Source: Candidatus Competibacter sp. (GTDB lineage: Bacteria; Pseudomonadota; Gammaproteobacteria; Competibacterales; Competibacteraceae). From it: DNA of 64,000 bases. Positions 35,957-53,319 of this stretch are shown in pieces. A model generated the notes under the pieces. The model made no database searches. It worked only from the letters and a program-made list of their open reading frames with translations, and had not been told where the DNA came from. The stretch spans positions 21,006 through 85,005 of the forward strand of contig JAVMKJ010000110.1 in the NCBI GenBank assembly GCA_031732855.1, in the 5' to 3' direction. The position numbers and the translations under genes were made by a program. Each line of letters starts with the position of its first letter. The stretch's first letter is position 1.

Positions 35957-36224
35957 GGCGAGTCCACCGAGAGTCGAGGAAAAGGTGGTGAATTATGCCT
36001 GAAATAGATATTGAGTTTTTGGCAGGTTGAACAGCCCTTTTAATGTTAAGTCAACTTATTAAATTATAATAACTTAATTGGTTGAATAAACCTGCATGAG
36101 GCGTTCGTCCAAGACACCCGGGGTGTATGGCGGTTGGCGAGTAGCCAGACTCATCCGTCACCTGATAATTGGCCAACTCCTTGTGGAAAAGCTGTCGGCA
36201 AGTTTTCCCGTCCAAAACCAGTGG

Positions 36225-38642
36225 CTAAGGCAGCCAAGACCACATCTCCACAGTCACAAAGCGCACCAGCCGATGGGTGAAGGCCACCGCCAGCGGTTCC
36301 TCCTCCGCGGCAATTTTGGCATAGCCCGTCATCCCCGGTTTCAGTAGACCCTCCGGGTTGGGTACCTCCAGGATGACCTTGACTACCCGGCCGGTAGGGG
36401 TATCGCTGGTAGCGGTGTCAATCTGGGTGACCTTGCCGGTAAAGTAGCGCTGGGAATAGGCCCATGGCTTGAGCCGGGCGCCAGCGCCCAGCGCCACGAA
36501 GGGTAAATCCGCTTCCGGCACGCTGATCTCGGTCCGCAACACTCGATCATCCTGCACGGTGGTGAACAAATCGCTCTCTTCAAGATACTTGCCGGTCAGA
36601 TTCCGCAACTTCAGGTCGGTCAGCCGTCCATCGATCGGCATGATCAACCGGGTGCGGGCCAACTGTTCCTGATCCAGCACCAGTTGTGCCTTGAGACGCT
36701 CCAGTTCGGCCCGCGCCGCATCGATATCCTGGGGATAGGGACCGGCCCTGACCAGATCGAGATTGGCCTGCTGTTTCTGCACCTGCTGGCGATCCACCTC
36801 CAGCTTGCTTTCCGTCGCCTCAAACTGTTGCTCCGACGTGAAGCCGCGCCGCAACAACTCCCGTTGCCGGGTCAATTCGCTGCGCTGAAACTTCTCCTCG
36901 GCCACGGCGACCTGGAGTTCGCGATCGGCGATGGTCACTTCCTCCGGACGTGGAGTGTTGAGCAGTTTATCCAGGTTGGCCTGTTGGCGGTCGATGGCCG
37001 CCCGGGTAATCGCAACCTGCTGCTCCTGACGATAGGATGACTGGCGAGCGATCGGGACACCGGCCTGCAGCCAGTCCCCCCCTTCATAGAACACTTGCTC
37101 CACGATGCCCGAAGTCTGGGCGTACAATTCCCGACTCTGAATCGGCATCAACTCAAAGGAACCACCGGTTTCGTAGGGATAAGGCAAGGCCCCGACCAAG
37201 ATCGCGAGAACCAGCAGAAGCGGTGCCGTCCACCGCCGGGTTTGAGCCGGGAGCGCGGCTACTGGTTCGCTCGCCAGCGCAGGGGTGACTGGTCGTCCGG
37301 CCTTGCTCCTCGCCGCCGCCGGCCGCGACCGATAACGGGCCTGACGCTCGGCGGTCCGCTTGCGAAATGCTCGCAGGAGGCTCCACCCCGCCCAAGTCAG
37401 CAAAATGAGGAACAGAGCGATACCGGTACCGCTGAAATGAAGACGCAGCCAATCGCCAATCAGATAAAGCGTCAACCCAAACAGCGCCAGAAAGTAGACG
37501 CAGACCGCCAGGGCATAGGCTACAAAAGCGGAGCGTCGACCACGCTCATCTTCCCTTACGGAACCTCGGCGGAACAGGGCGCGAATGGCCTGGAGACGTA
37601 GATTGGGAGTATCCAGATAAGCCGTCAGCCATCGGTAACCATCGCCCGCGCCCAAGGGATTGCTGCTAATCACGAACATGATCGTCGTCATCAGCATCAG
37701 GCTCAGCCAGAAGAACGGCAGCCGGGTACCGGTATCGCGACTCAGCAACCAGCCCAGCACACTAAGGCCGAACAACGCGATTTTGACCAAGGTGGGGGTT
37801 GCCAGCACCCAAAGCACCTGGTTTCGCGACAATCGATCGAGACCGTCCAGTTCGACATGAAAGCGTGGCAGGACACCAAACAACAAGAAAACGCCAACGC
37901 CCTCGACCCGTCCCCCCAATGCGATATTGACTACACCCTCCAGCCAATGGCTCAGGAAATTGACTATCATCAAATTGATCAGCAGATGCAGAAGGATATG
38001 CTGAAGAGGAGTGACAGGTCCCCAAAAATAACTCAGATCGGTTTTCAGATGCGCGGCGTTGTACATCAGCGCCACCAGTGCCAGTCCAAAACCGAGCGGT
38101 AACAGATAGATCAAGGATGCCAGCGGACGAATCAACCGCGCCAGGAAATCCATGAGCGCGGTCGCTTTCACCAAACGCCGGTAATAAGAGGGAGTACGCT
38201 TGCCGGGCTCCCGCCCGCCAGGCTTGAGCGCATCGAGCAAGGCCAGCCAGGCATCGTCGGCTTCGGCGCCAGGAAAATGCCGGTTCGCTTCAGGTGATCG
38301 GGACGGTTCGGACGGTTCGGACGGTTCCGGCGCTTCATCCATACTTGCCGCCGTTGCCGGTGAGGTTTTCGGAGTATCCGCCAGCAACCCCCAACCTGAA
38401 AGACTGGTCAGGAACTTGTCGAGATAGGCAGGTGTGAGGCGTTGCTGGTAATGTTGTTGAAAGGCCTGCAGCAGGACCTCTGGCGCGGCGCGACCATCGA
38501 GTCGGGTAATGAGGAAATATTCCTTCTCGCCGAACTCGAAGGTTTCGTTCCAGACCGGATCGCGGATGACGTAGACCGTCCCCTGCTCGCGGTTGTCGCA
38601 GGTGATGACCAGATCATCCCGCAGCTTGGGAATGCTTGACAC
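36225..38642 (-). CDS. Fusion protein: PqqD-like N-terminal domain + polytopic M50(site-2-protease)-like membrane domain lacking HExxH + C-terminal HlyD-type membrane-fusion domain
   Basis: 805 aa with a GTG start 3 nt after the upstream stop. The N-terminus is SIPKLRDDLVITCDNREQGTVYVIRDPVWNETFEFGEKEYFLITRLDGR. A Pro/Ser/Glu linker is followed by ~7 hydrophobic helices carrying HILLH and NPLGAGDGY. The C-terminal ~330 aa show lipoyl-like hairpin, long coiled coil and beta-barrel features typical of HlyD adaptors. Confidence 0.6.
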   Translation of the reverse strand: MSSIPKLRDDLVITCDNREQGTVYVIRDPVWNETFEFGEKEYFLITRLDGRAAPEVLLQAFQQHYQQRLTPAYLDKFLTSLSGWGLLADTPKTSPATAASMDEAPEPSEPSEPSRSPEANRHFPGAEADDAWLALLDALKPGGREPGKRTPSYYRRLVKATALMDFLARLIRPLASLIYLLPLGFGLALVALMYNAAHLKTDLSYFWGPVTPLQHILLHLLINLMIVNFLSHWLEGVVNIALGGRVEGVGVFLLFGVLPRFHVELDGLDRLSRNQVLWVLATPTLVKIALFGLSVLGWLLSRDTGTRLPFFWLSLMLMTTIMFVISSNPLGAGDGYRWLTAYLDTPNLRLQAIRALFRRGSVREDERGRRSAFVAYALAVCVYFLALFGLTLYLIGDWLRLHFSGTGIALFLILLTWAGWSLLRAFRKRTAERQARYRSRPAAARSKAGRPVTPALASEPVAALPAQTRRWTAPLLLVLAILVGALPYPYETGGSFELMPIQSRELYAQTSGIVEQVFYEGGDWLQAGVPIARQSSYRQEQQVAITRAAIDRQQANLDKLLNTPRPEEVTIADRELQVAVAEEKFQRSELTRQRELLRRGFTSEQQFEATESKLEVDRQQVQKQQANLDLVRAGPYPQDIDAARAELERLKAQLVLDQEQLARTRLIMPIDGRLTDLKLRNLTGKYLEESDLFTTVQDDRVLRTEISVPEADLPFVALGAGARLKPWAYSQRYFTGKVTQIDTATSDTPTGRVVKVILEVPNPEGLLKPGMTGYAKIAAEEEPLAVAFTHRLVRFVTVEMWSWLP

Positions 38643-38645
38643 GGC

Positions 38646-40139
38646 TTAACGGCGACCCAGCCAGATTTCCAGGCCACCCTGGGGATTATCCTCGTAACGC
38701 CACTGGTCCCCGCGGCGGACGGCCACCCGGGGGCCGAAGGGATTGGCGGTACCGAGAAAAAAACCATGCGGCGTGGAGACCAGAGTGCGAAGCCCATAGT
38801 TGTAGGGATTTCCGAAGCCCTGGCGGTTGACCGGCAACCAATTTTCACCGTCGCTGCTGCGCCACAACTCGAATCCGCCCTGCCGCGCGACGATGTTTTC
38901 CACCCCGATCAATTCGTAGAGACGGCTAACCCTCGGGGACCGTCGTTCCAAATCGGCATACCGCAGCGTGTTGCTCCAGTCCATGGTGCCGGCGTAGAGC
39001 CAACCATCGTGGACACCCATCCGCCACAGATAGGCATTGAAGAAATTGCCAAAACCGGCGCCGAGCCCGCTCAAGGGACGCTTGAAACCCTGGACCGTAT
39101 CCCGGGCGTTACCGACGATGAGATCCCAGGAACCGTCGCCCCGAACCCGGAGTATTTCCGCGCTGGCCGGGCCGATCTTGTGGGTGTAATCGTAGCCGCC
39201 ATTTTGAATGCCGGTGCCGAGATAGAGCGCACCCCGAAAAACCTGCATGCTGGCGACCAGCTGATTCAGTGACCCGCGCCCGGCACCGCCTTCGAGCACC
39301 TTTTCCCAGCGGTACGGCGGTCGATCCTCGGCAGCGGTACGCCACAACTGAAAACCCTGGTTATTGAGGGTTCCGGCATAGAGACGGTCCTCAAATACCG
39401 CCATCTCGAAGATGGTCAGATTACCAGGATCGCCGAAGCCCGGTTCGTTGACCAGGATCCAGTCCCCCCGGACGGGATCGCGGGTGGCGTAGATTTCAGG
39501 CACCCGAGAAGTATTGGGATTGCCTTGGGCAGCGCCGGTAGGCGCGATAAACAATTGCCCCTTGAAAGGCACCAAGGCTCGCAGACTGGTGACTGGCTGA
39601 CCGCCGATCCTGCCCAACCGGCCGACCACCTCGAAAGTCGCACCATCGCGGCAGCGCAGCAGTAGCGGGCCATCGCCGTTGGCCCGCGACCAGTTACTGG
39701 TATACAAAGCAGGTTCGGGGTCGCTGGCGCTCTGGTAAATCACCATCCCCCGATAACCCAGATCGCGGCTCATCGTGCCGCCGTGATTGCCCACCACCAG
39801 CGGCGCCCGATAGACCCGCGTCCAGGCAGCTTGCACGGGATGGTACTTCCAAATTTCGGCGCGGGCCTGCAGGGTTTCGAACTCCTCGGACAGCAACTTG
39901 TGGGGACACTCCACCGGCCAGACACCGATATCGATGCCAAGCCGTTCCTTGATCAGGCAGAAATTGGCCCGGGTCGTGCCGACATACAGGGCATCCCGGT
40001 ACCAAGCCATGCAATGAGCATAGGCGTTGTTGCCATCACCGAAACCGTTGGCGCAAATCTTGTAAAAATCCTGAAAACGCAGGCCAGGCTCGGGGGAAGG
40101 ATAAAAACGGTTACCTGCAAGTCCGATGGTGGCGATCAT
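38646..40139 (-). CDS. Beta-propeller repeat protein, paralogue 1 (497 aa, cytoplasmic by sequence)
   Basis: Repeated blades of the form GFG(D/N)..N .. LY(V/A/L)GT .. GF(Q/E)LWR. Examples are NGFGDGNN..LYVGT, GFGDPGN..LYAGTLNNQGFQLWRT, GFGNFFN..LYAGT and GGFELWRSSDGENW..GFGNPYN..FFLGT. No signal peptide. The ATG overlaps the upstream stop (ATGA). Confidence 0.6.
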   Translation of the reverse strand: MIATIGLAGNRFYPSPEPGLRFQDFYKICANGFGDGNNAYAHCMAWYRDALYVGTTRANFCLIKERLGIDIGVWPVECPHKLLSEEFETLQARAEIWKYHPVQAAWTRVYRAPLVVGNHGGTMSRDLGYRGMVIYQSASDPEPALYTSNWSRANGDGPLLLRCRDGATFEVVGRLGRIGGQPVTSLRALVPFKGQLFIAPTGAAQGNPNTSRVPEIYATRDPVRGDWILVNEPGFGDPGNLTIFEMAVFEDRLYAGTLNNQGFQLWRTAAEDRPPYRWEKVLEGGAGRGSLNQLVASMQVFRGALYLGTGIQNGGYDYTHKIGPASAEILRVRGDGSWDLIVGNARDTVQGFKRPLSGLGAGFGNFFNAYLWRMGVHDGWLYAGTMDWSNTLRYADLERRSPRVSRLYELIGVENIVARQGGFELWRSSDGENWLPVNRQGFGNPYNYGLRTLVSTPHGFFLGTANPFGPRVAVRRGDQWRYEDNPQGGLEIWLGRR

Positions 40140-40588
40140 CGAGGCGGGAACAAAGGATTAGGTAGGTCGCAATCAATCGGCTTGGGTAGTCCCAAGGATT
40201 TTCCGGCTTCCTCAAAAAGGGCGAGTTCCTCGCGGGTCACGGCCAACACCGCTTCCAGCCAGGTGACCCGGTACCGTAGCTCGCGACAGCGCTGGTCGAT
40301 CTCTTCCAGGGTGCTGGACCCCGGATCAAAGACCTTGTTGAAATCGAACTCGGGCGGCTGCATGTCGAGCAACTGACTCAATTGCTCGGCCGTAACCCTC
40401 GGAACGGAGGCGGGCGCCGGCGGGGATAACGTCTCCAATAAGCCATCCGCCATGGTGGATTCCGGTTCTTCCGCCCGGACAGGACCCGCGCCGGCTTCAT
40501 CGCCGGCCGGAGCGGTGGTGAAACCAAAACGTCCCCGGGCGCGCAGACGCTCCAAGGCCGACAGTCGTTTCTCTACGGCGGGGTCCAT
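40136..40588 (-). CDS. Low-complexity acidic protein with C-terminal amphipathic/coiled-coil helix (150 aa)
   Basis: MDPAVEKRLSALERLRARGRFGF.., then a Pro/Ala/Glu-rich middle, then ..EEIDQRCRELRYRVTWLEAVLAVTREELALFEEAGK. It is intercalated between sulfotransferase-like 1 and propeller 1. No known motif. Confidence 0.45.
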   Translation of the reverse strand: MDPAVEKRLSALERLRARGRFGFTTAPAGDEAGAGPVRAEEPESTMADGLLETLSPPAPASVPRVTAEQLSQLLDMQPPEFDFNKVFDPGSSTLEEIDQRCRELRYRVTWLEAVLAVTREELALFEEAGKSLGLPKPIDCDLPNPLFPPR

Positions 40589-40631: not shown

Positions 40632-41549
40632 TCAAACATAGCCGAGCCGTTCGGCCAGTTGCAGGGTTTGCGGATTGAACCCCCGACCGTCGGACCGCCA
40701 AGGCAATAATCCAACCAAGCTGCTGGCGGTGATACGGCCGGGGCGGAAGCGGGGATCCTTGAGAAAGTTGATATCGTTGCCAAGATGCGCTCCGAAAGGC
40801 CCGAGGGAGGCATAGGGCGACGCCTCCGGATGCAGCATGGCTTCCATCGCCTCCGGGCTATCGGCCACCCCCAACCAGGTGGCGCACATTCGCAGATGCG
40901 ACTCTGGATCGTTCAGCAAGTCCTCGCCCCGGATCGTCCGCTGCCGCTCCCAGGGAATATCGGCCAGAAACGCCAGAATATGGCTCTGCGTCCGGCACCA
41001 AGTGACCTGAGGGTCCAGAGTGGGGGGCAAGGTGCTGTAGTCATAAGCGTTTTCCATCGCGGCCAGCAACGGATTCAGACGCAACAACGATTCCCCCTGG
41101 GTACGCGGGTGCCGGACTAAATGGATGTAGCAGGCTTCGGGAAACGTTTCGGCGATACGCCGCAGATAGCGCGGGCTGGCGCAATAGACCGGGCTCTTGT
41201 CCACGATGCGTAAGGGAGACACCCGGATGGCTAACTCCCGATAAACTTCACCGGTGGTACGGGAAAGCCGGCGCAGGATCCAACGACGCGCCAGGTCGAT
41301 GCTGGCCAGGGTTTGCTCTCCGGCATAGATCTGGGCGATCGCCCGCAGCAATCCGTGCATCATGAACTGGCGCTGGCCGGTCAGGCGCAGCCACAACCGC
41401 CGCATATCAGGTTCGATGAACAGATTGAGTTCCGGTACTCCGTAGTGGGCCGGATGCTGGCCCAGCATGGCGCAGATCACCGAGGTGAAGGAACGCGGCG
41501 AGCCGAGAATGAACAGCGGCGCCGATGCAGTGGTTTTTGACGCATTCAC
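40632..41549 (-). CDS. Sulfotransferase-like protein, paralogue 1
   Basis: 5'-PSB-like loop ILGSPRSFTS and 3'-PB-like IHLVRHPRTQGES. It is paralogous to 42809-43693 and 46123-47007. The start was set at the GTG at 41549, which overlaps the upstream stop (GTGA). The listed TTG at 41564 is the alternative. Confidence 0.6.
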   Translation of the reverse strand: MNASKTTASAPLFILGSPRSFTSVICAMLGQHPAHYGVPELNLFIEPDMRRLWLRLTGQRQFMMHGLLRAIAQIYAGEQTLASIDLARRWILRRLSRTTGEVYRELAIRVSPLRIVDKSPVYCASPRYLRRIAETFPEACYIHLVRHPRTQGESLLRLNPLLAAMENAYDYSTLPPTLDPQVTWCRTQSHILAFLADIPWERQRTIRGEDLLNDPESHLRMCATWLGVADSPEAMEAMLHPEASPYASLGPFGAHLGNDINFLKDPRFRPGRITASSLVGLLPWRSDGRGFNPQTLQLAERLGYV

Positions 41550-42808
41550 AGAGACAACCGCCAAACCGTCAGTCCGGGCGGCAGGGAATCAGTGCCAGGT
41601 CCCGCGGCGGTGGAAATCGCCGCGCCAGGTTCCGCAATATCGGGGTCCGCCGCGCTAAAACGCGCCGTGGTACCGGTGCAAGCCAGGAGGTGATCGCCCA
41701 GATGGATCAACCCCAGCAGCGGCTGGGCAGCTTCGACAAGCAGCCCCGGCCATTCCCGGGGCTCAAACTGTTCCCCGTCGCTACTGGCCCACAACTGCTG
41801 GCGAATCGGTTCCCCGGCTTCGGGCAAGGTGCCGGCCGCAATATACAGGGTACCGCGATGGCTGAAAAGACCCAGAAGGTTAGCGCGAGCGGGATCGCCG
41901 AGACCGGACCCAAGCGAGGCCAGCGGCACCTTGAGACCCTGTGGGGTGAAACGCACTGCACCCGCCAGGATTTCCCAACGATCATCCTGGTCCACCCGTA
42001 ACAAATCCACTCCCAATGGCCTGGCGTTGGCGGCGGTCTGCCCGGTCCGACCGGCGGCCAGACAGAGTTTATCGTTCCAAACCGTCAGCGCGAGGATCTC
42101 GCGGTTGCCGGTATGGCGCTCGGCGCCATCGCGCAGCACGCAATGCCAATCCTCTGCCATGCCCTCCGGGGTCAGCCCGGCCCACCAGAGTTGAAAGCCT
42201 CGCTCATCGTTGGCCACCGCCGCGTAAAGCCGCCCCTGCCATGCGATCAGGTGGGTGATCATGACATGGGCGGAATCGCCAAATGGGGACTCAACCATCG
42301 GTCGCCATCTTTCCCAAGCGGGACCTTCATTCCACAGCAGGGCAGGCGCCCTGCCGCTCGCCGCGTCACCGGCCACCGCCACGAAGAGTCGACCCTGGCA
42401 ACCCAGCAATGCGGTCACCGGGCCGTAGCCGCCGGGGAATTCGGCCACCGGCAGAAAGCACTCTCCGGTATCGCTCCAGGCCAGCGCCACACCATGGTCA
42501 TGAAAGGCATTGGTGAACAGCCGAGGACGATTTCCAGCCGCAATGGCGAAGGTCAAACCCGGGAGGAAGGGTGACCTCGCCGGTTCGGCAAGAATCGAGG
42601 CGACTTCACCTCTCACGGTTGGATATACCGCCCGCCAGTACGGTTGATCGATCCCGCGCCGGACTACCTTAACACCGGCGGGCATCCGGGTGGCGAGATG
42701 GAACGCGCCGTCAAACTCCATTCCGGCGAGAGCAGTCACCGCGGTCGACCCCGCGCCACGGGTTAAACATTCGATGGCATGAAACCAGTCGGATGGAACG
42801 CCGGACAT
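41546..42808 (-). CDS. Beta-propeller repeat protein, paralogue 2 (420 aa)
   Basis: Same blade pattern as paralogue 1 (RLFVAVAGD, RLYAAVANDERGFQLWWA, KLCLAAGRTG, TLYIAAGT, QLWASSDGEQFEP). Its ATG directly follows the stop of sulfotransferase-like 2 (TGAATG). Confidence 0.55.
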   Translation of the reverse strand: MSGVPSDWFHAIECLTRGAGSTAVTALAGMEFDGAFHLATRMPAGVKVVRRGIDQPYWRAVYPTVRGEVASILAEPARSPFLPGLTFAIAAGNRPRLFTNAFHDHGVALAWSDTGECFLPVAEFPGGYGPVTALLGCQGRLFVAVAGDAASGRAPALLWNEGPAWERWRPMVESPFGDSAHVMITHLIAWQGRLYAAVANDERGFQLWWAGLTPEGMAEDWHCVLRDGAERHTGNREILALTVWNDKLCLAAGRTGQTAANARPLGVDLLRVDQDDRWEILAGAVRFTPQGLKVPLASLGSGLGDPARANLLGLFSHRGTLYIAAGTLPEAGEPIRQQLWASSDGEQFEPREWPGLLVEAAQPLLGLIHLGDHLLACTGTTARFSAADPDIAEPGAAISTAAGPGTDSLPPGLTVWRLSL

Positions 42809-43693
42809 TCAACCGTACCCCATCTGTCTGGCCAACTCGCCGACCGCCTGCGTCAGTTCGGGATCCGGAATCTGGGCTAGCAGCGGATCCTCACGCAGGG
42901 GCGGCAAGGTCAATTCGGGGCGCCGCAGAGTCGGCGACAGCAAAAACTTGCGATCATCGCCCCAGCGGGCATTGACCGGTCCCGGCCTAGCAAAGGGTGA
43001 ATGCTCGGGGTGGCGCATCGCCTCAATCGCATCGGCATCGTCCCGAATCCCCAGCCACTGGGCGATCTGCGGCAAATAGCATTCATCTTGGGTCAGCAGC
43101 AATTCCCCCCGCACGCTCGCGCACTGACCCTCCGGCAACACCGAAGCGAAATCCAGAATGGCGCTGTGGTGGTGATACCAAAGCTTCAACTTCTGCTGCA
43201 ACCATTTGCCTTGCTCGGGTGGTGGCTCCTCGCGCTGGTCCAGGAGGGCATGGGCCACCGCCAGCGGGTGAGTAGTTACATGCAGGAAATTCGCTTGGGG
43301 CACCGCCTTGTAGGCCCGGATCAGAAAGCCCCATTGGACCGAACTGGTGGTGCTCTTGTCTACCAGAATCCGGGGCGCCACCGCAGCGGCCAGATGAGCG
43401 ATTATCCGAGCGATGCTCCAGTCGCGCCGGTCCGCCAGCCAGCTCCAGGCCCGGCGGGCGCTAGCCTCGCTCTGCTCGCCTTCGTGCAATTGCGCCAAGG
43501 CACGCACCAGACCGTGGGTAGCTTGGGGCTGGTCCTGGCGGTGGGTGTGATAATCGTGCCACTGCGTCACGGTATCGGCGACAAACAGGTTAAGCTCCGG
43601 CAAACCGTAAAGTTGCGGGTGCTGGCCCAGCATGGCGCCGACCAGTGAAGACAGCCAGTGCGAGGCGCCGAGAACAATGATCGCGTTAGCCAT
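42809..43693 (-). CDS. Sulfotransferase-like protein, paralogue 2 (PAPS-binding motifs degenerate)
   Basis: 294 aa from the ATG at 43693. The listed ORF extends to 44083 but would then overlap the esterase gene. It shares MLGQHP..PELNLF..HGLVRALAQLHEGEQ..DKS..EAMRHPEHSP with the paralogues. However, it has GASHWLSS and VTTHPLAVAHA where the others have PRSF(T/S)S and RHPR..G.S. Confidence 0.55.
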   Translation of the reverse strand: MANAIIVLGASHWLSSLVGAMLGQHPQLYGLPELNLFVADTVTQWHDYHTHRQDQPQATHGLVRALAQLHEGEQSEASARRAWSWLADRRDWSIARIIAHLAAAVAPRILVDKSTTSSVQWGFLIRAYKAVPQANFLHVTTHPLAVAHALLDQREEPPPEQGKWLQQKLKLWYHHHSAILDFASVLPEGQCASVRGELLLTQDECYLPQIAQWLGIRDDADAIEAMRHPEHSPFARPGPVNARWGDDRKFLLSPTLRRPELTLPPLREDPLLAQIPDPELTQAVGELARQMGYG

Positions 43694-46126: not shown

Positions 46127-47007
46127 TGGTAACCGAACTCCCGGGCCAGCTTCAGGGTCGGACGGGAAAAATAACTACCGGGACGCCAATCCAGTTCTTC
46201 CTCCAAACGGGGTTGCTCCTGGGCGCGGGACGGACGCAGGCGCGGATCCTTGAGAAAATTGGGATCGTTACCCATCTGAGCATTGGCCGGCCCCAGACAG
46301 GCATAGGGCGAGGTCTCCGGATGCTTCATCGCCTCGATCGCCGCTTGATCGGTCCGCACCCCCAGCCATTCCGCGATCTGCGGCAGATAAATATCAAGCG
46401 CCGATAACAGATCCTCACCCTTGATCCGCATGCACTGACCGAAAGGCAGAGTGCGGGTGAATGCCACGATGTTATGGTGGGCGACATACCAAAGCCGCTC
46501 GGGGTCGACCCGGTCGGGATCGGCTGGACCGTTCCATTCGTGATTGTGCCGCACCAGTTCCAGAATGGATTTGCCGGTCGCGCGGGGATGACGGGACAGA
46601 TGCAGATAACTGGCACTGGGGCAAATGCCGTGCATGGTCCGCAGGACACGCGGACTCATCACCGTCGCCGGACTTTTGTCGATTAGAATCCGGGGCGCGA
46701 CTCGATCGGCCAGGTAGGTGAACACCCGCCCCGTGGCCCATTCCAGACGCGCGTCGAGCCAGTGCTGTGCGCGGCGCACTGTAGCCTCGGTCTGCTCGCC
46801 GTCGTGCAACTGCGCCAAGGCGCGCAACAAGCCATGCACCGCAAAGGGGCGAGTACGCTGGTGCCGCTGCAGCAGGGCGCCCAGGTTATCTTCCAGGAAC
46901 AGATTCAGCTCCGGCATTCCGTACATATCCGGGTGTTGGCCCAACATGCCGCAAACCACCGAGGAAAAGGAACGAAGTGGACAGAGAATAATGAGAGGAT
47001 CAGGCAT
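46123..47007 (-). CDS. Sulfotransferase-like protein, paralogue 3
   Basis: 294 aa. 5'-PSB-like CPLRSFSS and 3'-PB-like LHLSRHPRATGKS. It shares conserved blocks with the two paralogues. Confidence 0.6.
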   Translation of the reverse strand: MPDPLIILCPLRSFSSVVCGMLGQHPDMYGMPELNLFLEDNLGALLQRHQRTRPFAVHGLLRALAQLHDGEQTEATVRRAQHWLDARLEWATGRVFTYLADRVAPRILIDKSPATVMSPRVLRTMHGICPSASYLHLSRHPRATGKSILELVRHNHEWNGPADPDRVDPERLWYVAHHNIVAFTRTLPFGQCMRIKGEDLLSALDIYLPQIAEWLGVRTDQAAIEAMKHPETSPYACLGPANAQMGNDPNFLKDPRLRPSRAQEQPRLEEELDWRPGSYFSRPTLKLAREFGYQ

Positions 47008-47899
47008 CGTGCATTCCGCATGGCGGCTGCGCCAGATTGGTCAGGAAATCTCGCCAGACCCGAATCAACAGTTCCGGCTGGGACACGGGAAAAAAATGGC
47101 CGGCCTTGGGCACCAGTTCGACTCGGGTCTGCGGCCACAGGGCCCGCAGACCATACGCGCTGGGCAACGCCTGGGAATACTCGCCGTACATCGCCAGGGT
47201 CGGCAGGCGCAGGGTCTGCAGTGCGACCAGCGACAGACCGTCCTCGGCCAGTTCCCGCCGGGCGGTGGTCACTTCCAGCAGGCGTAACCAGTGACGCGCC
47301 GCCCGCTGGCCGACCGGCCCGGTGAACGGCAAATGCAGGTCGGGCAACCGCTGCACCCGCTCGGGAGCACCCAGAGAAAGCTTGGCCATCTCTTCCAGCA
47401 AACGGTGGCTGAACAGGGGATCGCTCTCATCCAGTTGGATACCGAGTCTTTCCAAAAACGGCTGGATTCGCCGTGTATAGGCTGGGTTGCGAGGCAGGAG
47501 CCCCTGCAGCGTGGGAATTCGAGTATCCAACAGGGTCAAACTGCGCACCCACTGGGGCTGGCGCAGGGCAAAATGCAACGCCACCAAGCCGCCGAAACTA
47601 TGCCCGATCAGATGCAGGGTGGTGACACCCGTCTGATGCAGGAGATGCCACAAATCTTCGGCCATGATCCGGGGTGAGTATCCGTTGACGCTCATGGTGC
47701 TGCGCCCGTGGCCGCGCAAGTCGAACAGCAGAGTACGATGGCTTGCAGCGAAGGCTGGTGCCAGACGGGCGTACCAGAACGCCAGATTGGCAGCCAGACC
47801 GTGCACCATCACCACATCATCTCCGGGCGCGCCCGGGTCCGGACGTCGATCCATCCGCAGATAATGGAGGTTGATCCCTGGCAAACGAACGACCGGCAC
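47000..47899 (-). CDS. Alpha/beta-fold hydrolase
   Basis: GTG start. VVMVHGLAANLAFWY (oxyanion HG), nucleophile elbow LIGHSFGG, and the C-terminal His region GHFFP. Confidence 0.7.
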   Translation of the reverse strand: MPVVRLPGINLHYLRMDRRPDPGAPGDDVVMVHGLAANLAFWYARLAPAFAASHRTLLFDLRGHGRSTMSVNGYSPRIMAEDLWHLLHQTGVTTLHLIGHSFGGLVALHFALRQPQWVRSLTLLDTRIPTLQGLLPRNPAYTRRIQPFLERLGIQLDESDPLFSHRLLEEMAKLSLGAPERVQRLPDLHLPFTGPVGQRAARHWLRLLEVTTARRELAEDGLSLVALQTLRLPTLAMYGEYSQALPSAYGLRALWPQTRVELVPKAGHFFPVSQPELLIRVWRDFLTNLAQPPCGMHDA

Positions 47900-47901
47900 G
47901 A

Positions 47902-49503
47902 CTATTCCATATAGCCCAACATATGCAACTGCTCGAGAATCCTGGCTTTTTCAGCCGCGCTGGCTTCAGTGGTCTTGCTGGTCCCACCCGCGACCGGCAG
48001 GGTTGGATCACCCAAGCGAACCGGATGGGAAATCCGTTGTTCGGCGGTGAAGAAAGCCTCTGGTACCCTCCCTTCCAAGTCTCCGGGAATATCCAGGCCC
48101 AAGCTGTATAGCAGGGTGGCCGCCACGTCCACGATGTCGCGGGGCTCGCCATGCTGGCCGGCGACGATACCCGGACCGGCAGCCAGGAAAATGCCCTCGG
48201 GATGATGGGTACCGACTGGATAGGGACGCGGCAACACCACTGGTTCCAGATTTTTTATCGAGACAAAACCGTGATCGCGCAAGGTCAACAACAGATCGGG
48301 AGCCTGACTCATGGATGGCCCAGGAAACACGTCCTCGCGGGTGCGGATGGCGCGGATGATGCGCTCGCCGCTTGCAGGATCGCGCAAGGCTTCCAGATCG
48401 ACCATCAGTTTGGCGCGGAAGGCCGGGTACTCGGCGGCGGCGATGCCGGCTTCACCAGGATGGCGGGCGACGCGGATCGTAATGCCGTTGCTGGAAGGCG
48501 TATGGCAATAGGCCACGGTATTCTTCCAGTCGAGATGGGTGAAAAAGGCGCTGGCCTCGCGCCGGGCAAATTCCGCGCTGCCGTCGGCCAGCTTCCAGAA
48601 CAAATAGCCTTTTTCATGCAGATAGCGGTTGATCCGCACCACCTCGTTACTGTGGGTGAAACCATGATCGGAGGCCACGAACACTTGCGCCGCGGGACCG
48701 GCCAGCGCCACCAGTCGCTCCAGATACTGGTCCAACTGGCGGAAATAGCGCAGACATAGCGCCCGCATCCGCCGTTCCCAGGGCGAGGGGTCGCTGTTAA
48801 GCAAGGCCGGCTCCAGGAAGCGCCAAGCCTGATGCTGGATCTTGTCGGTGCCATCGAACATCACTGCCATCAAGTCCGGCCGTTCGCTGGCCAGCAGGTG
48901 GCTGGCCACCCGAAACCACTGCTCCTCGCGGGGCAGATGATATCCGACCCAGGCTTCGCACTCCGCTTCGGAAAGATCGTCCAGCGACTGATTTTCCCGC
49001 TCGAAATCCCAGGCCAGCTCCTTGGGGTTGAAGCCATCCAGGGCACGCAAACGTTCGTAAAGCGACTCGGGATAGCTGTTGCGGCGCAGGTGCTTCCAGG
49101 GAACGAAACCGGGCAACAGAAACCCGTTGACCGGCCGGGGCGGCGCGGTAATCGGGAAGTTGAGCGCCGCCACGCGCCGCTGTTGGCGGCTGGCAATGGC
49201 CCAGATCGTCTCCACCCGGATATCACGGGCATCGTAGAGAGTCGTAAAACCCTCGCCATTCTGTTCGGCCACCCGCAGAAAGTCGAAAACTCCATGCTGG
49301 CCCGGCCAGCGCCCGGTCATCAGCGAGACCCAAGCGGGCGGAGTGAGGGGGTTGGGCGTGGAGCGCAGCACCGCCCGTGTCCCGCTCGCCATGAAAGACC
49401 TGAGAAACGGCATTACGATCTCGCCGTCGGGGTCGGGTTGGATCATTGCATCCAGCAGGGTGAAGGTGGCACCATCCAGACCGATGAACAGGGTCCGGGT
49501 CAT
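47902..49503 (-). CDS. Alkaline-phosphatase-superfamily enzyme (type I phosphodiesterase / nucleotide pyrophosphatase, COG3379-like)
   Basis: MTRTLFIGLDGATF (metal-binding DG), NPLTPPAWVSLMTG (nucleophile Thr context) and ASDHGF. 533 aa. The ATG overlaps the carrier-protein stop (ATGA at 49500-49503). Confidence 0.65.
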   Translation of the reverse strand: MTRTLFIGLDGATFTLLDAMIQPDPDGEIVMPFLRSFMASGTRAVLRSTPNPLTPPAWVSLMTGRWPGQHGVFDFLRVAEQNGEGFTTLYDARDIRVETIWAIASRQQRRVAALNFPITAPPRPVNGFLLPGFVPWKHLRRNSYPESLYERLRALDGFNPKELAWDFERENQSLDDLSEAECEAWVGYHLPREEQWFRVASHLLASERPDLMAVMFDGTDKIQHQAWRFLEPALLNSDPSPWERRMRALCLRYFRQLDQYLERLVALAGPAAQVFVASDHGFTHSNEVVRINRYLHEKGYLFWKLADGSAEFARREASAFFTHLDWKNTVAYCHTPSSNGITIRVARHPGEAGIAAAEYPAFRAKLMVDLEALRDPASGERIIRAIRTREDVFPGPSMSQAPDLLLTLRDHGFVSIKNLEPVVLPRPYPVGTHHPEGIFLAAGPGIVAGQHGEPRDIVDVAATLLYSLGLDIPGDLEGRVPEAFFTAEQRISHPVRLGDPTLPVAGGTSKTTEASAAEKARILEQLHMLGYME

Positions 49504-49787
49504 ACGCCGTCACCTCGCTGCAATTTTCGCTCGACAAAGACGACCAGTTCGCCGATGGTGAGATCGCTGACATACTGATCGCCTTGCATCAGCAATCCCT
49601 CGAAACCCAGGCGGCCCCGCCCAAAGTGCTCCTCGATCGACACGAGGAGATGGACGATATCGATGGAACTGAAACCCAGATCAGTGACCAACCGGGTTTC
49701 CAGGGTAATCGCCTCATCCAATGTGATCTCCCAGTCCCGAATCGAATCTTCAATCAGCGTAATGATGCTGAATGCAACTCTAAGCAT
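49500..49787 (-). CDS. Phosphopantetheine-type carrier protein (ACP/PCP-like, 95 aa)
   Basis: From the ATG at 49787: MLRVAFSIITLIEDSIRDWEI..LVTDLGFSSIDIVHLLVSIEEHFG. This has the four-helix carrier-protein layout, with the Ser in a (D/G)(F/L)(D/S)S(I/L)D context. The listed ORF could extend to the ATG at 49943, adding a Cys/Arg-rich 52-aa extension that I consider less likely. Confidence 0.55.
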   Translation of the reverse strand: MLRVAFSIITLIEDSIRDWEITLDEAITLETRLVTDLGFSSIDIVHLLVSIEEHFGRGRLGFEGLLMQGDQYVSDLTIGELVVFVERKLQRGDGV

Positions 49788-50188
49788 GGTTATTTCCGAC
49801 AACTTGAGGTCTGGACAGGATTTTCTTCTCGCGGGAAAGGCAAGAACCGATGGCGGGGCTCCTTCCAATCGCACTGGATGGCAGTGCACCGTCAGCCTCT
49901 GGCACCTCTCCGTTCCAGCACAGCACGCAAGGTCTCGACGCATTCAAATCTGGACGGTCGAACAGCCGGAAATCTCGCCTCCGTCGCAGATCGCCCAAGA
50001 AAACCTAGCATGGCAGTGCCATTTTGCGAGGTTGCCATGAAAGTACCGGACTTTCATCGTTGGGGGTGTCGATTCCATCGACATGATTGTTAGGCACTCG
50101 CTGGAACTCCGAATCGGTCCTTCACTGTCAATCAGGACTGGCTAGTAACGGGCACGCACGGAGAAACGCTCTTTACACCTATTTCAGC

Positions 50189-50794
50189 CTAGCGCTTTTG
50201 CAGCTTGCCTATTAGTTCCAGTTCCTTGAGTCCCTTGTCCAGGGTTTCTTCCAGCCAGTCGATACGCTTTTCCAACTGGGCACGATAACGACTCAGCATT
50301 TCCGGCGAGAACGTGCTGAAGGGCGTGGAAGATTCACTCGTCATGGCGATGTCGTCGTCGAGAAGGGGGGGCGCGGCCTCGGGCACGGTTTGAGATATCG
50401 GCGGAGAAGGACGGGCCGGCGTTTCCGTTCCTCTATCCAAGGCTGCCCGGAAACGACCGCCGCGTCCCATGCCACCCCCGAAGCCACCCGCCACTCTACC
50501 CTGTTGCCGGCGCTGCGCCAGCATTTCCCTCAACCGGGGGAAGCGTTCCAATACTGCCTGGGGGTCACCGCCACCTTCTCCCATCGGCGGATTCCGGAAC
50601 AGGCCCCGTCCTCCGCCCAACCCACGCCCGTCCAAAGCATTCTCCTCCAGGACCTGCGCCGGCTCCGCAGATTCCAGATCTGGCTTTCTCAGGATCTCTG
50701 GCGATTCCGGCAATGGCGCCTGATCGAGCCGTTGATGCTTTTCCTTTAACGCCTGCAATCGCGCGCGCCGCGCCTGAGCATCGTCTTGAGCCAT
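50189..50794 (-). CDS. Low-complexity Arg/Gly-rich protein with C-terminal coiled-coil helix (201 aa)
   Basis: The ATG at 50794 has a GAGG Shine-Dalgarno 6 nt upstream. The listed GTG at 50845 is the alternative. Sequence: MAQDDAQARRARLQALKEK.., RGG/GGF-rich centre (GRVAGGFGGGMGRGGRFRAAL), and a C-terminal SRYRAQLEKRIDWLEETLDKGLKELELIGKLQKR. Confidence 0.45.
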   Translation of the reverse strand: MAQDDAQARRARLQALKEKHQRLDQAPLPESPEILRKPDLESAEPAQVLEENALDGRGLGGGRGLFRNPPMGEGGGDPQAVLERFPRLREMLAQRRQQGRVAGGFGGGMGRGGRFRAALDRGTETPARPSPPISQTVPEAAPPLLDDDIAMTSESSTPFSTFSPEMLSRYRAQLEKRIDWLEETLDKGLKELELIGKLQKR

Positions 50795-50878
50795 GCTTGC
50801 CTCACTCGGTGAAAAGTGTGAAAAATCGTCGGGTAAACAATACACCCCAGTTATGTTTGACGCGAAGCCACGCGGAAA

Positions 50879-51697
50879 TCAACGTGGCACCCGCCCCTCG
50901 ATGAAGGGCACTTCGAAAACTTTCTCGTGCATGATCGGCCCGTGGCCGAAATATCCGTCCTCACCGAACAGTTCGCCATGATCGGAGGTGATGATGACAT
51001 GGGTATTGTCGGGACAACGGGCGAACAGACGATCCATCAGGGAGTCCAAGTATTCCACGCAACGGATCTGCTGCTGGTGCAGGGATTGCATCTGCCGGGA
51101 ATCGAAGAACTCGTCATCCCCGGCTGGATCGCGGCCATCGGCCAGCGCCTTGAAGACGCCATGCACCCCGGAAATATGCGGCAGGCTTTCCTTGGGCAGC
51201 ATGTAGGGATAATGGGTTTCACCCAGATTGAGAAAGTAGAAGTACGGCTGCCCGTCCTCGAATTCGATGCCCTCGATCATGCCGGCAAAATCGCTGTGGT
51301 TCTCCATCAACCGGTAGTCATCGAAGTGGCGGCTAAGCAGGGTAAACGGATTGAGTACCGGTAGGGAGACCCGGGCCACGCAATAATAACCCAAACCTTG
51401 CAGCACCTTCGGTAACGAAAGCTCGGGTATAAAGGACTGAAAGGACAGGTTAGGGATGCCCAACCGATCAACCCATTGGCTGAATTCCTTTTTATAGACC
51501 TCGGAGGCGAACACCCCGTGCGGGCTGGCATGCGGCATCATCCCCATGAGAAAGGCATAATGAGCCGGCGCTGTCCAGGAAGCATAACTCCAACGGCGTT
51601 CCAGCGTACCGACCCGCGCCATGTTCGGGGCGTTGGCTCGGGCAAAGCTGTCGTAGCGACAACTGTCGAAGATTAAGAAAACCAGATGATTGGCCAT
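50879..51697 (-). CDS. Small alkaline-phosphatase-superfamily (sulfatase-like fold) metalloenzyme, no CxPxR sulfatase motif
   Basis: From the ATG at 51697: MANHLVFLIFDSCRYDSF (metal Asp plus a Ser/Cys nucleophile candidate) .. NLGETHYPY .. VIITSDHGELFGEDGYFGHG. The listed ORF start at 51859 would overlap the TPR gene by 143 nt. Confidence 0.55.
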   Translation of the reverse strand: MANHLVFLIFDSCRYDSFARANAPNMARVGTLERRWSYASWTAPAHYAFLMGMMPHASPHGVFASEVYKKEFSQWVDRLGIPNLSFQSFIPELSLPKVLQGLGYYCVARVSLPVLNPFTLLSRHFDDYRLMENHSDFAGMIEGIEFEDGQPYFYFLNLGETHYPYMLPKESLPHISGVHGVFKALADGRDPAGDDEFFDSRQMQSLHQQQIRCVEYLDSLMDRLFARCPDNTHVIITSDHGELFGEDGYFGHGPIMHEKVFEVPFIEGRVPR

Positions 51698-51716
51698 GCG
51701 GGGCTGGGAGTTAAAT

Positions 51717-52910
51717 TCACACCGCAGTTTGGGCGCGGCGCAAATTTTGGCGGCGAGCGGAACGGCTTGGAGCATCTTTTCGCGGGCGTCGCCGTTTGCC
51801 GAAGGGGATACGAATCCTCGTGAAGACCTGATGCAGGCGGGCAGCCCTGACGCTGTCATCGCCTGGGATATCCTGCTTCAATTCCGGGTGCTGCTCGGCC
51901 AGCTCCGGAGCATGCAACAACACTGCCTGATACTCCTTTATCGCTTCCTCGGGATAATCCAAGGCGACATAGATATTGCCCAGCAGGGCGTGAACCGCGG
52001 CGGCGCCACTCTTGCCACGCAGGAGGTCGCGCAGGAGATCCAAGGCATCGTCGTAGCGCTCCTCCCGAACATACAGTTTGGCCAAATTGTACTTGGCGCC
52101 GCTCGACCGTGGCTTGAGGCGTAACACTTCCCGGAAACAGCGTTCCGCCAGTGGATAATCGCCACTCTGGACGGCGCAATACCCCAGGAAGAAATGGGCC
52201 GATGCCTGATCTGGGCGCTGATCGAGAACCTGACAAAAAGCGGCGATCGCTCCCTGATGATTTTTCTCGCGGAGATACAACCGGCCTAACTGGAAAGCGC
52301 CTTGCCAGTATTTGGGATCCTTGCGCAACGCGGCGCGCAACTCGGCGCTGGCCGCCTTGAGGTCTCCTTGCTGGCGGTGGATGGTCGCCAGCAGACTGTG
52401 CGCGGACAGCATCTGCGGGTTGGCGCGCAGACAGGCCTCTGCATGTTGTCGGGCTTCGGTGAATTCCTGCTGCCGGGCCAGCAGACGGCCCAGTTGCAAT
52501 TGCACGCCGGACAGATTGGGCTTTTGGACCAATGCCTCGCGGAAATTGGCGATCGCCTGTTCCGGCTTGTCTAGAGCGGCATAAGCATTGCCGGTCATCG
52601 CCAGGGCGGCTGCGAACTGGCGTTGGCCACGCAGCGCTTGCTGGAAATGCTCGATAGCGGTTTGATATGCGTCTTGTTTATAGCATACGACCCCGATAAG
52701 GAAATGGGCCATGGCCAGTTTTGAATCAAGGCGCAACGCCTGTTGCAAAGCTTCCCGAGCCTCGTCATAGCGCTGCTCGCGGAAATGCCGCACACCTGCC
52801 CGCACATAAGCCAAGGCTTCCTGACTGGCTGGGCCACTACCGACCCGCTCCAAGCGCGGTTCCCATTCGCCATCTTCCAGCACGCCATCGCTAATTTCGT
52901 TCTCGATCAT
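51717..52910 (-). CDS. Tetratricopeptide-repeat protein, first gene of the accessory operon
   Basis: About 9 tandem 34-aa TPR units (e.g. YDEAREALQQALRLDSKLAMAHFLIGVVCYKQDAYQTAIEHFQQAL) and a basic C-terminal tail. The ATG at 52910 has an AAGGAA Shine-Dalgarno 8 nt upstream. The listed start at 52955 is a TTG. Confidence 0.7.
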   Translation of the reverse strand: MIENEISDGVLEDGEWEPRLERVGSGPASQEALAYVRAGVRHFREQRYDEAREALQQALRLDSKLAMAHFLIGVVCYKQDAYQTAIEHFQQALRGQRQFAAALAMTGNAYAALDKPEQAIANFREALVQKPNLSGVQLQLGRLLARQQEFTEARQHAEACLRANPQMLSAHSLLATIHRQQGDLKAASAELRAALRKDPKYWQGAFQLGRLYLREKNHQGAIAAFCQVLDQRPDQASAHFFLGYCAVQSGDYPLAERCFREVLRLKPRSSGAKYNLAKLYVREERYDDALDLLRDLLRGKSGAAAVHALLGNIYVALDYPEEAIKEYQAVLLHAPELAEQHPELKQDIPGDDSVRAARLHQVFTRIRIPFGKRRRPRKDAPSRSARRQNLRRAQTAV

Positions 52911-53319
52911 AAATACGTTCCTTGCTGCTTGACTTGGCTTGCAATGTAAAGTCAATGCGGATTTTCAGTTGGCCATGCCTGCCATTGCTTACAACTCGAA
53001 CAAAAACTTTTTTATAATAATCCATATGTGAACAAATACAAACAAAGGTCAATTTCAAGAGACCCAATCATGGAACAGCCAGTTTGCTGTATTATGCAAC
53101 CAACAGTTTCAAGAGGGGTTTGAGCAGGCTTTTTCTTCAGAGGCGGGCATTATGACGAACTGAAAGAATGTTGCGGCAGAGCGAAGTAAATTACTCTCCT
53201 GGTAGGAAACCGAAGGCCAAGGAAGACTTTCCCCCTTGACCGGAGGAGAGGAAACAGAACGCCTCCTTCTCCCGAGTTGCCTGCGAGGGTAGATAGGAAA
53301 TTCGGGCACACCCTTCCCC

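Follow-up and report, generated by a model that had tools for sequence, protein, structure and literature searches.

A 15-gene cluster of Candidatus Competibacter from a widespread, uncharacterised family that may tailor and export a specialised lipid

We analysed a 64,000-nucleotide stretch of DNA from Candidatus Competibacter sp. (GTDB lineage Bacteria; Pseudomonadota; Gammaproteobacteria; Competibacterales; Competibacteraceae; NCBI GenBank assembly GCA_031732855.1, contig JAVMKJ010000110.1, positions 21,006 to 85,005 of the forward strand), hereafter the window, and in particular a block of 15 minus-strand genes that lies between der and nuoF. We lean towards the reading that this block is a copy of a widespread, horizontally mobile, uncharacterised cluster that tailors and exports a specialised (secondary) lipid, and give that reading somewhat better than an even chance. 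The conserved core consists of a dedicated acyl carrier protein (ACP), an NPP-type phosphodiesterase (or a fused sulfotransferase), a Ser alpha/beta-hydrolase and a beta-propeller protein. Around this core are found interchangeable tailoring enzymes (sulfo- and methyltransferases, short-chain dehydrogenases/reductases (SDRs), TauD dioxygenases) and an envelope module, which is made up of a pseudo-site-2-protease-HlyD (pseudo-S2P-HlyD) fusion, a TPR protein and secreted esterases. NCBIfam, PADLOC, Rfam and the searchable literature gave no name or description of the gene set, in agreement with an earlier reading of the sequence without database searches (the sequence-only reading), which could match the block to no named pathway.

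The features of the block are listed below with window positions; values are E-values.

52911-53319, no strand: AT-rich border upstream of the cluster, on its nuoF side, probably containing the promoter; 31% GC at 53000-53099.
51717-52910, minus strand: TPR protein, 397 aa (ATG at 52910), cytoplasmic, no hydrophobic segment; TPR_16 3e-45, TPR_2 3e-43.
50879-51697, minus strand: small enzyme of the alkaline phosphatase (AlkP) fold, about 272 aa, STM4013-like, with an NPP-like 'WTAPAH' Thr motif; Sulfatase 8e-9, Phosphodiest 4e-6.
50189-50845, minus strand: LC218, a 218-aa low-complexity protein with a C-terminal coiled-coil (CC)-like helix; no Pfam or NCBIfam match.
49788-50188, no strand: intergenic gap of 401 nt, from the gap computation and the comparison with the related locus L008.
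49500-49787, minus strand: ACP, 95 aa, phosphopantetheine site DLGFSSID; PP-binding 3.6e-4, ACP models to 1.6e-6.
47902-49503, minus strand: NPP-type phosphodiesterase (PDE), 533 aa, translationally coupled to the ACP; PF01663 8e-40.
47000-47899, minus strand: Ser alpha/beta-hydrolase (ABH) with GHSFGG; Abhydrolase_1 2e-29, Thioesterase 9e-5.
46123-47007, minus strand: sulfotransferase 1 (ST1), CurM/OLS-family, free-standing 'PRSF[ST]S' type; Sulfotransfer_3 6e-19; ATGA overlap with propeller 1.
44765-46126, minus strand: propeller 1 (BP1), 453 aa; 38% identity to BP3 over the full length, E 7e-96.
43686-44720, minus strand: lipoprotein esterase, type-1 catalytic-domain family of polyhydroxyalkanoate (PHA) depolymerases, periplasmic; NF050058 4e-53, Esterase_PHB 1e-12, lipobox LMTGC.
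42809-43693, minus strand: ST2, degenerate paralogue with several ligands lost; Sulfotransfer_3 3e-12.
41546-42808, minus strand: propeller 2, 420 aa, divergent paralogue; matches BP3 at 1e-22 along no more than 214 residues.
40632-41549, minus strand: ST3, best conserved of the three STs, catalytic residues kept; Sulfotransfer_3 6e-25.
40136-40588, minus strand: CC150, putative 150-aa coiled-coil adaptor with the C-terminal motif SSTxEEIxxRxxELxYRxxWL; ATGA overlap with BP3.
38646-40139, minus strand: propeller 3 (BP3), 497 aa, the signature protein; AlphaFold2 model, no family match.
36225-38642, minus strand: 805-aa membrane protein with a putative RRE/PqqD-like N-domain, a predicted pseudo-site-2-protease of eight transmembrane (TM) segments and a periplasmic HlyD adaptor; HlyD_D23 5e-13.
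35957-36224, no strand: downstream AT-rich border before der; 26% GC at 35991-36090.

A profile of the propeller family, scanned against one genome per GTDB species, gave 80 loci, and 82 non-redundant loci were analysed by searching their six-frame open reading frames (ORFs) with the 15 window proteins. The loci came from at least seven phyla and were found in Cyanobacteria (including Gloeobacterales), Competibacteraceae, Chromatiaceae, Verrucomicrobia, Alphaproteobacteria, Tectomicrobia, Rokubacteria and others. Among the 82 we counted homologues of the STs (46 + 33), ABH (36), the HlyD fusion (36), PDE (33), ACP (29), the TPR protein (24), the esterase (24) and the small AlkP-fold protein (10). 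Gene order was kept as well: PDE was followed by ABH in 25 loci, ABH by BP3 in 25, BP3 by the esterase in 15, an ST by a propeller paralogue in 13 and ACP by PDE in 12, and the TPR homologues adjoined the pseudo-S2P-HlyD gene in 24 loci. The ST-propeller pair and the HlyD fusion, which the sequence-only reading had placed in one operon, both recurred among the 82 loci.

Its statement that no polyketide synthase (PKS) is present held for the window, where we detected no hglE/pfa-like PKS genes (KS, AT, KR, DH, ER), but not for the family, as 26 of the 82 loci carried PKS genes. The recurrent neighbours were a KS-AT protein of about 1050 aa (26/82 loci), KR-DH (9), a TauD dioxygenase (21) and SDRs (12); the further neighbours comprised methyltransferases (one CMAS-like) and a number of secreted serine hydrolases. 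In Anthocerotibacter the order was an ER-KS-AT-ACP PKS, KR-DH, KS-AT, a phosphopantetheinyl transferase (PPTase), ACP, PDE, ABH and propeller. When metagenome contigs were searched in the reverse direction with a free-standing ST as seed, other members of the set were recovered in 33 of 34 loci of at least 8 kb, and the order small AlkP, ST, HlyD fusion recurred. As the propeller and the ST seeds recovered the same partners, these genes did not come together by chance. Five metagenome contigs (L142-L144, L148 and L150) carried the small AlkP, free-standing ST and pseudo-S2P-HlyD trio with no propeller within 10 kb, which suggests a separable sub-module.

The ACP scored just above the Pfam cutoff for PP-binding, and the motif 'DL.F.SiD' was conserved in 38 homologues. 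In 12 loci a homologue of the window ACP was fused to a canonical ST and was then followed by the same ABH and propeller. The PDE was present in 31 loci and the ACP-ST fusion in 12 with zero overlap, the NPP-type PDE taking the place of the fusion; free-standing STs were found in 25 of the 31 PDE loci, and the remaining six included four Gloeobacterales loci. The PDE was 60-66% identical across phyla and 530-535 aa long throughout, and its match to PF01663 covered the whole model. An AlphaFold2 model of the PDE (pLDDT 83) had as its best Foldseek matches Xac NPP and ENPP5/6/7/1 (TMt 0.6-0.69) as well as PhnA, a phosphonoacetate hydrolase. D10, T54, D220, H224, D279, H280 and H433/H434 were invariant in 25 sequences, and from their motifs these residues would be the NPP Thr nucleophile and the ligands of two metals. 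The small AlkP-fold protein matched NF038075 below its cutoff (9e-21), with cyanobacterial homologues 61-65% identical. For the ABH, a candidate thioesterase or acyltransferase, the PDB neighbours were generic (esterase, epoxide-hydrolase-like).

When ST3 was compared with the PDB, the CurM ST (4gbm, 4.7e-22) and the olefin synthase (OLS) ST (4gox, 1.9e-16) were the best matches, followed by TPST2 at 0.055. All three STs passed the threshold of PF13469, the kind of match on which the sequence-only reading had staked its sulfotransferase calls. Judged by these matches, the STs are members of the CurM/OLS activating-ST family. The CurM/OLS ST reportedly sulfonates the beta-hydroxyl of an ACP-bound acyl chain, and a neighbouring thioesterase (TE) is said to release the chain with decarboxylation and sulfate loss, giving a terminal alkene. 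We take the Glu of P-E-L to be the proposed base, and the Lys of D-K-S-P and R-H-P...S (3'-phosphate) presumably belong to the active site as well.

The 5'-phosphosulfate-binding (PSB) loops differed from the canonical S-P-R-S-G-S-T, reading SPRSFTS in ST3, PLRSFSS in ST1 and ASHWLSS in ST2. The loop Gly was replaced by Phe/Tyr in all free-standing STs with a readable loop motif (64/95) and kept in none of them, and the His of PELH was mostly Asn, whereas the ACP-fused STs kept SPRSGST and PELH, the loop Gly being present in 12 of 12. Both ST1 and ST3 kept the Arg of the loop, the Glu of PEL, the Lys of DKSP and RHP..S, as did a consensus drawn from 91 free-standing STs. From these motifs the free-standing STs appear as a distinct clade. 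ST2 reads ASHWLSS, DKST and TTHP, so that Arg, Arg and Ser ligands are lost, including the RHP Arg; it is probably enzymatically inactive, and together with propeller 2, which like ST2 was restricted to the closest relatives, it looks like a decaying duplicate. An APS kinase was found within the locus of Anabaena sp. PCC 7108 and at no other locus examined. The membership of the CurM/OLS family, the 12 ACP-ST fusions and the PKS genes in 26 of 82 loci favour a product that is built on the carrier protein as a sulfated acyl chain or lipid, one of the two working hypotheses of the sequence-only reading, over the other, the sulfation of a peptide.

It is unlikely, in our view, that the cluster makes a lipid with free-standing STs that do not sulfate at all. 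These would then be nucleotide- or ACP-binding scaffolds or use another donor, and the two NPP-type enzymes would carry out phosphoryl transfer, for example acyl-phosphopantetheine release or addition of a phospho-head group. The altered loop, kept canonical only in the 12 fused STs, fits this explanation, as do the loss of most ligands in ST2 and the Gloeobacterales cores without any ST. The mutual exclusivity of the PDE (31 loci) and the canonical fused ST (12) suggests that the PDE can replace a true ST step, and both AlkP-fold proteins keep the NPP Thr and metal motifs, with the PDE 60-66% identical across phyla. However, ST1, ST3 and the consensus have kept the Arg of the PSB loop, the Glu proposed as base, the Lys of DKSP and RHP..S, a pattern that is hard to account for without PAPS chemistry, and the APS kinase inside the Anabaena locus also speaks for sulfate transfer.

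The propeller is the signature of the cluster. The beta-propeller call of the sequence-only reading stood: BP3 gave a confident AlphaFold2 model (30 homologues; pLDDT 91.8, pTM 0.92), Foldseek recognised propellers, and propellers 1 and 2 are paralogous by sequence. Its statement that each of the three STs is followed by a propeller applied to ST1 and ST2, but ST3 is followed by CC150 and only then by propeller 3. In the PDB, all Foldseek matches of the BP3 model were to generic propellers with 6-8 blades (designed SAKe, Kelch, WD40, lactonases; TMq at most 0.46), and the best E-value of the propeller profile against PDB sequences was 0.26. An analogy with PAPS-independent aryl-sulfotransferase (ASST) was considered and rejected, as no such match was among the Foldseek top 50. 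The three propellers, LC218 and CC150 matched no family in Pfam or NCBIfam, and propellers 1 and 3, LC218 and CC150 matched none in PADLOC (propeller 2 was not in that search). The propeller family itself gave 2604 word-indexed matches, every one labelled "hypothetical", and in an exhaustive HMMER scan it amounted to 4392 representative clusters (50% identity), of which 952 reached E<=1e-30. BP3 was 50-65% identical between Competibacter-like bacteria and cyanobacteria or other phyla, and the cyanobacterial proteins among the word-indexed matches were 55-65% identical to it. About 43 of the best 150 representatives carried a C-terminal class-I SAM methyltransferase fusion. In L088, a JGI metagenome contig (69-11925), the order was ACP, PDE, ABH, propeller-methyltransferase, methyltransferase, SDR, SDR, a 512-aa protein, a CMAS-like methyltransferase and two NAD-dependent epimerase/dehydratases, with no sulfotransferase.

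For the two proteins that the sequence-only reading had described as low-complexity coiled coils, the lack of a family was borne out, but a C-terminal helix is conserved and is elsewhere fused to the propeller, the match of the LC218 helix being weak. The CC150 motif was present in 15 ORFs from cyanobacteria and from gamma- and alphaproteobacteria; in the cyanobacterial proteins it was preceded by a TM and HAMP module, and in P0029 and P0034 two copies were fused at the N terminus of the propeller. Because this helix is fused to the propeller in other organisms, we read the small CC proteins as adaptors rather than substrates, and CC150 as a detachable N-terminal module of the propeller. The C-terminal helix of LC218 aligned with CC150 only weakly (E 0.013), and LC218 as a clear CC150 paralogue was therefore rejected; the relation is tentative at most.

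Only the esterase, with its lipobox, and the 805-aa protein are envelope proteins; all others look cytoplasmic. The 805-aa protein has eight hydrophobic segments between residues 174 and 489. Its HlyD part (HlyD_D23 5e-13, HlyD_3 4e-9) contains barrel-sandwich and beta-barrel adaptor domains, and it also matched TIGR01730 RND_mfp (4e-25; 88.5 bits, just under the cutoff of 94.9) and the DevB-type TIGR02971 (9e-9). NF041824, the daptide HExxH protease, matched at 1e-12 and NF058609 at 3e-4, while no Peptidase_M50 match was obtained in Pfam. As a word-based search gave just 8 relatives, the homologues were taken from the related loci. HExxH, expected in the first core TM helix, is absent, the window protein having SHWLEG at that place, and the 33 homologues have no conserved His or Glu at the site; the NxxPxxxxDG motif of the third core TM helix is kept (SSNPLGAGDGY in the window, 'a.Pl.p.DGy' family-wide). 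On these motifs the membrane domain is a pseudo-site-2-protease. The N-terminal 100 aa of the window protein matched no Pfam family at E<=1; its homologues matched PF05402 (PqqD) in 6 of 15 cases (best 9.7e-7), and the top three PDB matches of the family profile were TbiB1, PqqD and TfuB1, all weak (E 0.06-0.4). In the PqqD-like/M50-like/HlyD fusion of the sequence-only reading the HlyD part was therefore correct, but the M50 part is a pseudo-protease without HExxH, and the PqqD part has support at the family level only, Pfam giving no match for the window copy. In three alphaproteobacterial metagenome-assembled genomes (MAGs; L062, L069 and L086) two pseudo-S2P-HlyD genes in divergent orientation (products of about 690 and 900 aa) were neighbours of each other and of the TPR gene.

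Sulfation and export of a peptide or protein in the style of RaxX/RaxST or of the ribosomally synthesised and post-translationally modified peptides (RiPPs) we hold to be a little less likely still than a lipid cluster with non-sulfating STs. A peptide, for example the CC tail, would be captured by the RiPP recognition element (RRE)-like domain, sulfated by the ST-propeller pairs and released by the S2P-like/HlyD protein. The N-domain family is PqqD/RRE-like (PF05402 in 6/15; TbiB1, PqqD, TfuB1), the membrane domain is similar to intramembrane metalloproteases of RiPP pathways (NF041824, NF058609), and an HlyD domain is present. An SST-x-EEI... motif is strongly conserved in the small proteins, and propellers are classic peptide-binding folds, with Kelch and WD40 among the structural neighbours. 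However, the STs are about 20 orders of magnitude nearer to acyl-ACP STs than to TPST, an ACP-ST fusion is found in 12 loci and PKS genes adjoin 26, the family-wide loss of HExxH leaves no leader protease, and the window N-domain has no Pfam match. The CC motif is fused to a cytoplasmic propeller of 490 aa, which indicates an adaptor and not an exported core peptide. The RaxST-like peptide sulfation put forward by the sequence-only reading is thus weakly supported, with TPST at E 0.055, no ABC/C39 exporter in the cluster and no precursor peptide found.

The esterase passed NCBIfam NF050058, the catalytic domain of type-1 extracellular short-chain-length (scl) PHA depolymerases, at 180.6 bits against a cutoff of 150, and is 344 aa long in total with no appended substrate-binding domain; the assignment to PHA is putative. 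A catabolic or remodelling locus, in which the esterases, the AlkP-fold hydrolases and the ABH break down or recycle a polyester, external or stored, or a (sulfo/phospho)lipid, which would matter to PHA-storing Competibacter-like bacteria, would agree with this match above the NCBIfam cutoff, with the Competibacter-type lineage, the closest relatives being Competibacteraceae MAGs, and with the richness of related loci in secreted serine hydrolases (PAF-AH/chlorophyllase/PETase-like, BD-FAE with EF-hand, beta-lactamase family). We see little chance of it: the dedicated ACP, PPTase, PKS genes, STs and methyltransferases are typical of biosynthesis, cyanobacteria and other phyla that are not known to specialise in PHA carry the cluster just as commonly, and the locus-variable hydrolases are accessory whereas the invariant core is cytoplasmic.

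The 15 minus-strand ORFs from 52910 down to 36225, a block of about 17 kb, were all present as the sequence-only reading had claimed, together with the overlaps and both AT-rich borders, between der/EngA (34568-35956, with EngA domains) and nuoF (53320-54612). Seven junctions are translationally coupled: on the minus strand, ATGA at 49500-49503, 46123-46126 and 40136-40139, GTGA at 41546-41549 and TGAATG at 42806-42811, and the 8-nt overlaps ATGCCTGA at 47000-47007 and ATGGCTAA at 43686-43693. 'Almost no intergenic space' described the remaining gaps (0-44 nt) well, but one gap of 401 nt separates LC218 from ACP. In the 84%-identical relative L008 only about 45 nt preceding the ACP start of this gap are conserved, no ORF inside it is conserved there, and an Rfam scan found no RNA family in it (just two tRNAs, both outside the cluster). 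Because the gap is not conserved, the block may be two transcription units, the gap being a possible internal promoter or 5' leader of the ACP-to-HlyD unit. For the small AlkP-fold gene the start at 51697 is preferred over 51859 and is the most likely one, giving 272 aa like the homologues of about 275 aa (61-65% identity); with it the 143-nt overlap with the TPR gene disappears. Profile searches also reproduced the calls of a TPR protein, two AlkP-fold enzymes, a carrier protein, an alpha/beta hydrolase, a lipoprotein esterase and three STs.

The lowest-GC 100-nt windows of the whole 64 kb, 35991-36090 (26%) and 53000-53099 (31%), are the two cluster borders. A terminator-like hairpin with a 12-bp stem lies at 53241-53215, downstream of nuoF, and a scan of promoters and terminators performed no better than on shuffled sequence. 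GC at third codon positions (GC3) was 0.62-0.74 in the cluster and 0.80-0.90 in der, nuoF and other neighbours; this lower GC3 than in the flanking housekeeping genes points to horizontal acquisition of the cluster. An NCBI MAG contig (GCA_031732995.1) and two independent Logan assemblies show the same arrangement. PADLOC gave no defence-system match beyond trivial TPR ones, and a tblastn search of the propeller against PLSDB gave no plasmid match. It was also observed that nuoB-C-D-E-F (53215-57695, minus strand) stops after nuoF with no nuoG-N behind it, the 17-kb cluster occupying that usual place.

There is hardly any chance that unrelated genes were joined by chance or assembly into at least two independent operons, as the non-conserved LC218-ACP gap and the metagenome-assembled origin of the window might suggest, since the same contiguous arrangement in the NCBI MAG contig and both Logan assemblies, the co-occurrence and gene order kept across phyla with two independent seed genes, the seven coupled junctions and the component fusions ACP-ST and CC-propeller speak against it, and it is largely refuted by synteny.

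In the lipid-tailoring and export reading that we favour, a hydroxyacyl chain would be carried on the cytoplasmic ACP, having been made, in this genome, by a PKS or a fatty acid synthase encoded elsewhere. ST1 and ST3, each with its propeller partner, would place sulfate from PAPS onto the hydroxyl(s) of the chain, and ST2 with propeller 2 would be a decaying duplicate. The ABH would free the chain, either as a sulfated acid or by CurM-like decarboxylative sulfate elimination to an alkene, and the NPP-type enzymes would act on a phosphodiester of the pathway, which may be the phosphopantetheine arm, PAPS/PAP or a phospho-head group. The CC adaptors and the TPR protein may dock the soluble enzymes onto the 805-aa membrane protein, the HlyD domain of which would hand the product across the periplasm, and the esterase may remodel the product or attach it by ester bonds.

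Several observations weigh against this reading. The replacement of the PSB-loop Gly by Phe/Tyr means that use of PAPS by the free-standing STs is not assured, and the Gloeobacterales loci, with a PKS-ACP-PDE-ABH-propeller core and no ST within 10 kb, indicate that sulfation is accessory and not core chemistry. Profile searches found no PKS, FAAL or acyltransferase for ACP loading in the window. No inner-membrane ABC, RND or MFS pump is encoded by the 15 genes, and none recurred in the 82 loci except an ABC ATPase (6). The PDB neighbours of the ABH are generic and hold nothing diagnostic of the CurM TE, and the modelled propeller fold gives no functional clue. As RRE domains bind peptides in known systems, the predicted RRE-like domain of the membrane protein keeps the peptide explanation alive. 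To our knowledge no product has been described for any member of the cluster family.

To a bolder form of the lipid reading we give a lower but appreciable probability. The propeller, PDE, ABH and ACP would form a new enzymatic core that processes and off-loads ACP-bound chains, with the propeller either catalytic or substrate-presenting and recruiting sulfo- or methyltransferases. This core would be coupled through the CC adaptors and the RRE-like domain to a pump-less pseudo-protease/HlyD conduit, and the product would be a new class of sulfated envelope lipid in at least seven phyla.

The propeller family is large, unusually conserved, unnamed and without a Pfam entry, and the genomic and biochemical context given here makes it testable. 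Activating STs of the CurM/OLS type are known as rare PKS-embedded domains in cyanobacteria; the presence of a free-standing, motif-altered clade of this family in many phyla means that sulfate-assisted lipid chemistry may be far commoner. Carriers of the cluster include glycogen-accumulating organisms of wastewater and bloom- or mat-forming cyanobacteria, in which the export of an anionic lipid could alter how cells aggregate, their surface properties or their interactions.

Elsewhere in the window, positions 1-10688 (plus strand) hold a prophage tail module with a tape-measure fragment (phrog_28420, 9e-28), a 1220-aa protein with a full-length match to phrog_6128 (E=0), a tail assembly protein and a tail protein (phrog_6079, 5e-94); the three prophage proteins tested at 2771-6433, 6443-7618 and 8853-10688 had no Pfam domain. 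At 20131-28557 (minus strand) lies a block of minor pilins of a type IV pilus that includes a 1781-aa protein with a PilY1 domain (PF05567, 1e-57). The GC of this block is 50-58% against about 65% around it, and it was probably acquired separately as an island. A cyclic-nucleotide-gated potassium-channel-like protein (cNMP_binding and Ion_trans_2; 11062-12366, minus strand) and tRNA genes at 30905-30977 (plus strand) and 58227-58308 (minus strand) are unrelated to the cluster.

Compared with known systems, the cluster lacks defining features of the RaxST and RiPP systems. As in the Xanthomonas raxX-raxST-raxA-raxB system, an ST of the PAPS type fold is encoded together with an HlyD-family adaptor. 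However, the cluster ST is not TPST-like (0.055 against 4.7e-22 for the CurM ST), ACP, PKS linkage and propellers are present, the 15 proteins include no RaxB-type C39-ABC exporter, and no RaxX-like precursor was found. RiPP pathways that combine an RRE with an intramembrane HExxH protease, such as daptides, resemble the cluster in the S2P-like polytopic domain (NF041824 1e-12) and in the putative RRE/PqqD-like N-domain, but in the cluster HExxH is absent from 33 of 33 homologues with only NPLxxxDG left, the domain is fused to an HlyD adaptor, and there is no precursor peptide or other RiPP maturase.

The heterocyst glycolipid (hgl) pathway, with the hglE PKS and DevBCA-HgdD, is similar in that an iterative hglE/pfa-like PKS (KS-AT, KR-DH, ER, PPTase) adjoins the core in many loci and an HlyD/DevB-type periplasmic adaptor is encoded (TIGR02971 9e-9). 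Unlike that pathway, the cluster has no glycosyltransferase and no DevC/DevA ABC transporter, and its adaptor is fused to a pseudo-S2P domain, whereas the hgl pathway is without the STs, propellers and NPP enzymes of the cluster. 'Type O' secondary lipid synthase clusters were catalogued in 2011 and left uncharacterised (Shulse & Allen 2011, PMC3098273); the taxa of the PKS-linked loci (Gloeobacterales and marine Alphaproteobacteria including Parvularculaceae) echo their reported spread, a likeness by taxa only. For "hglE-KS"/secondary-lipid PKS clusters, the products of which have been unknown since that cataloguing, the cluster offers a candidate for the pathway downstream.

From the CurM/OLS module the cluster differs in several ways. 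In the window the ACP, ST and hydrolase are separate genes without a PKS and not an ACP-ST-TE tridomain, and the free-standing STs have Phe for the PSB-loop Gly and mostly Asn for the PELH His. The three STs have propeller partners with no counterpart in CurM/OLS, an NPP-type PDE stands at the place of the fused ST, the hydrolase is generic and an envelope export module is added. The likeness is that the STs belong to the same distinct ST family, with an ACP and a Ser alpha/beta-hydrolase encoded beside them, and that 12 related loci reproduce the ACP-ST-TE order, with ACP and ST in one polypeptide and the hydrolase gene next. Genes for type I PKSs are also frequent neighbours of the cluster.

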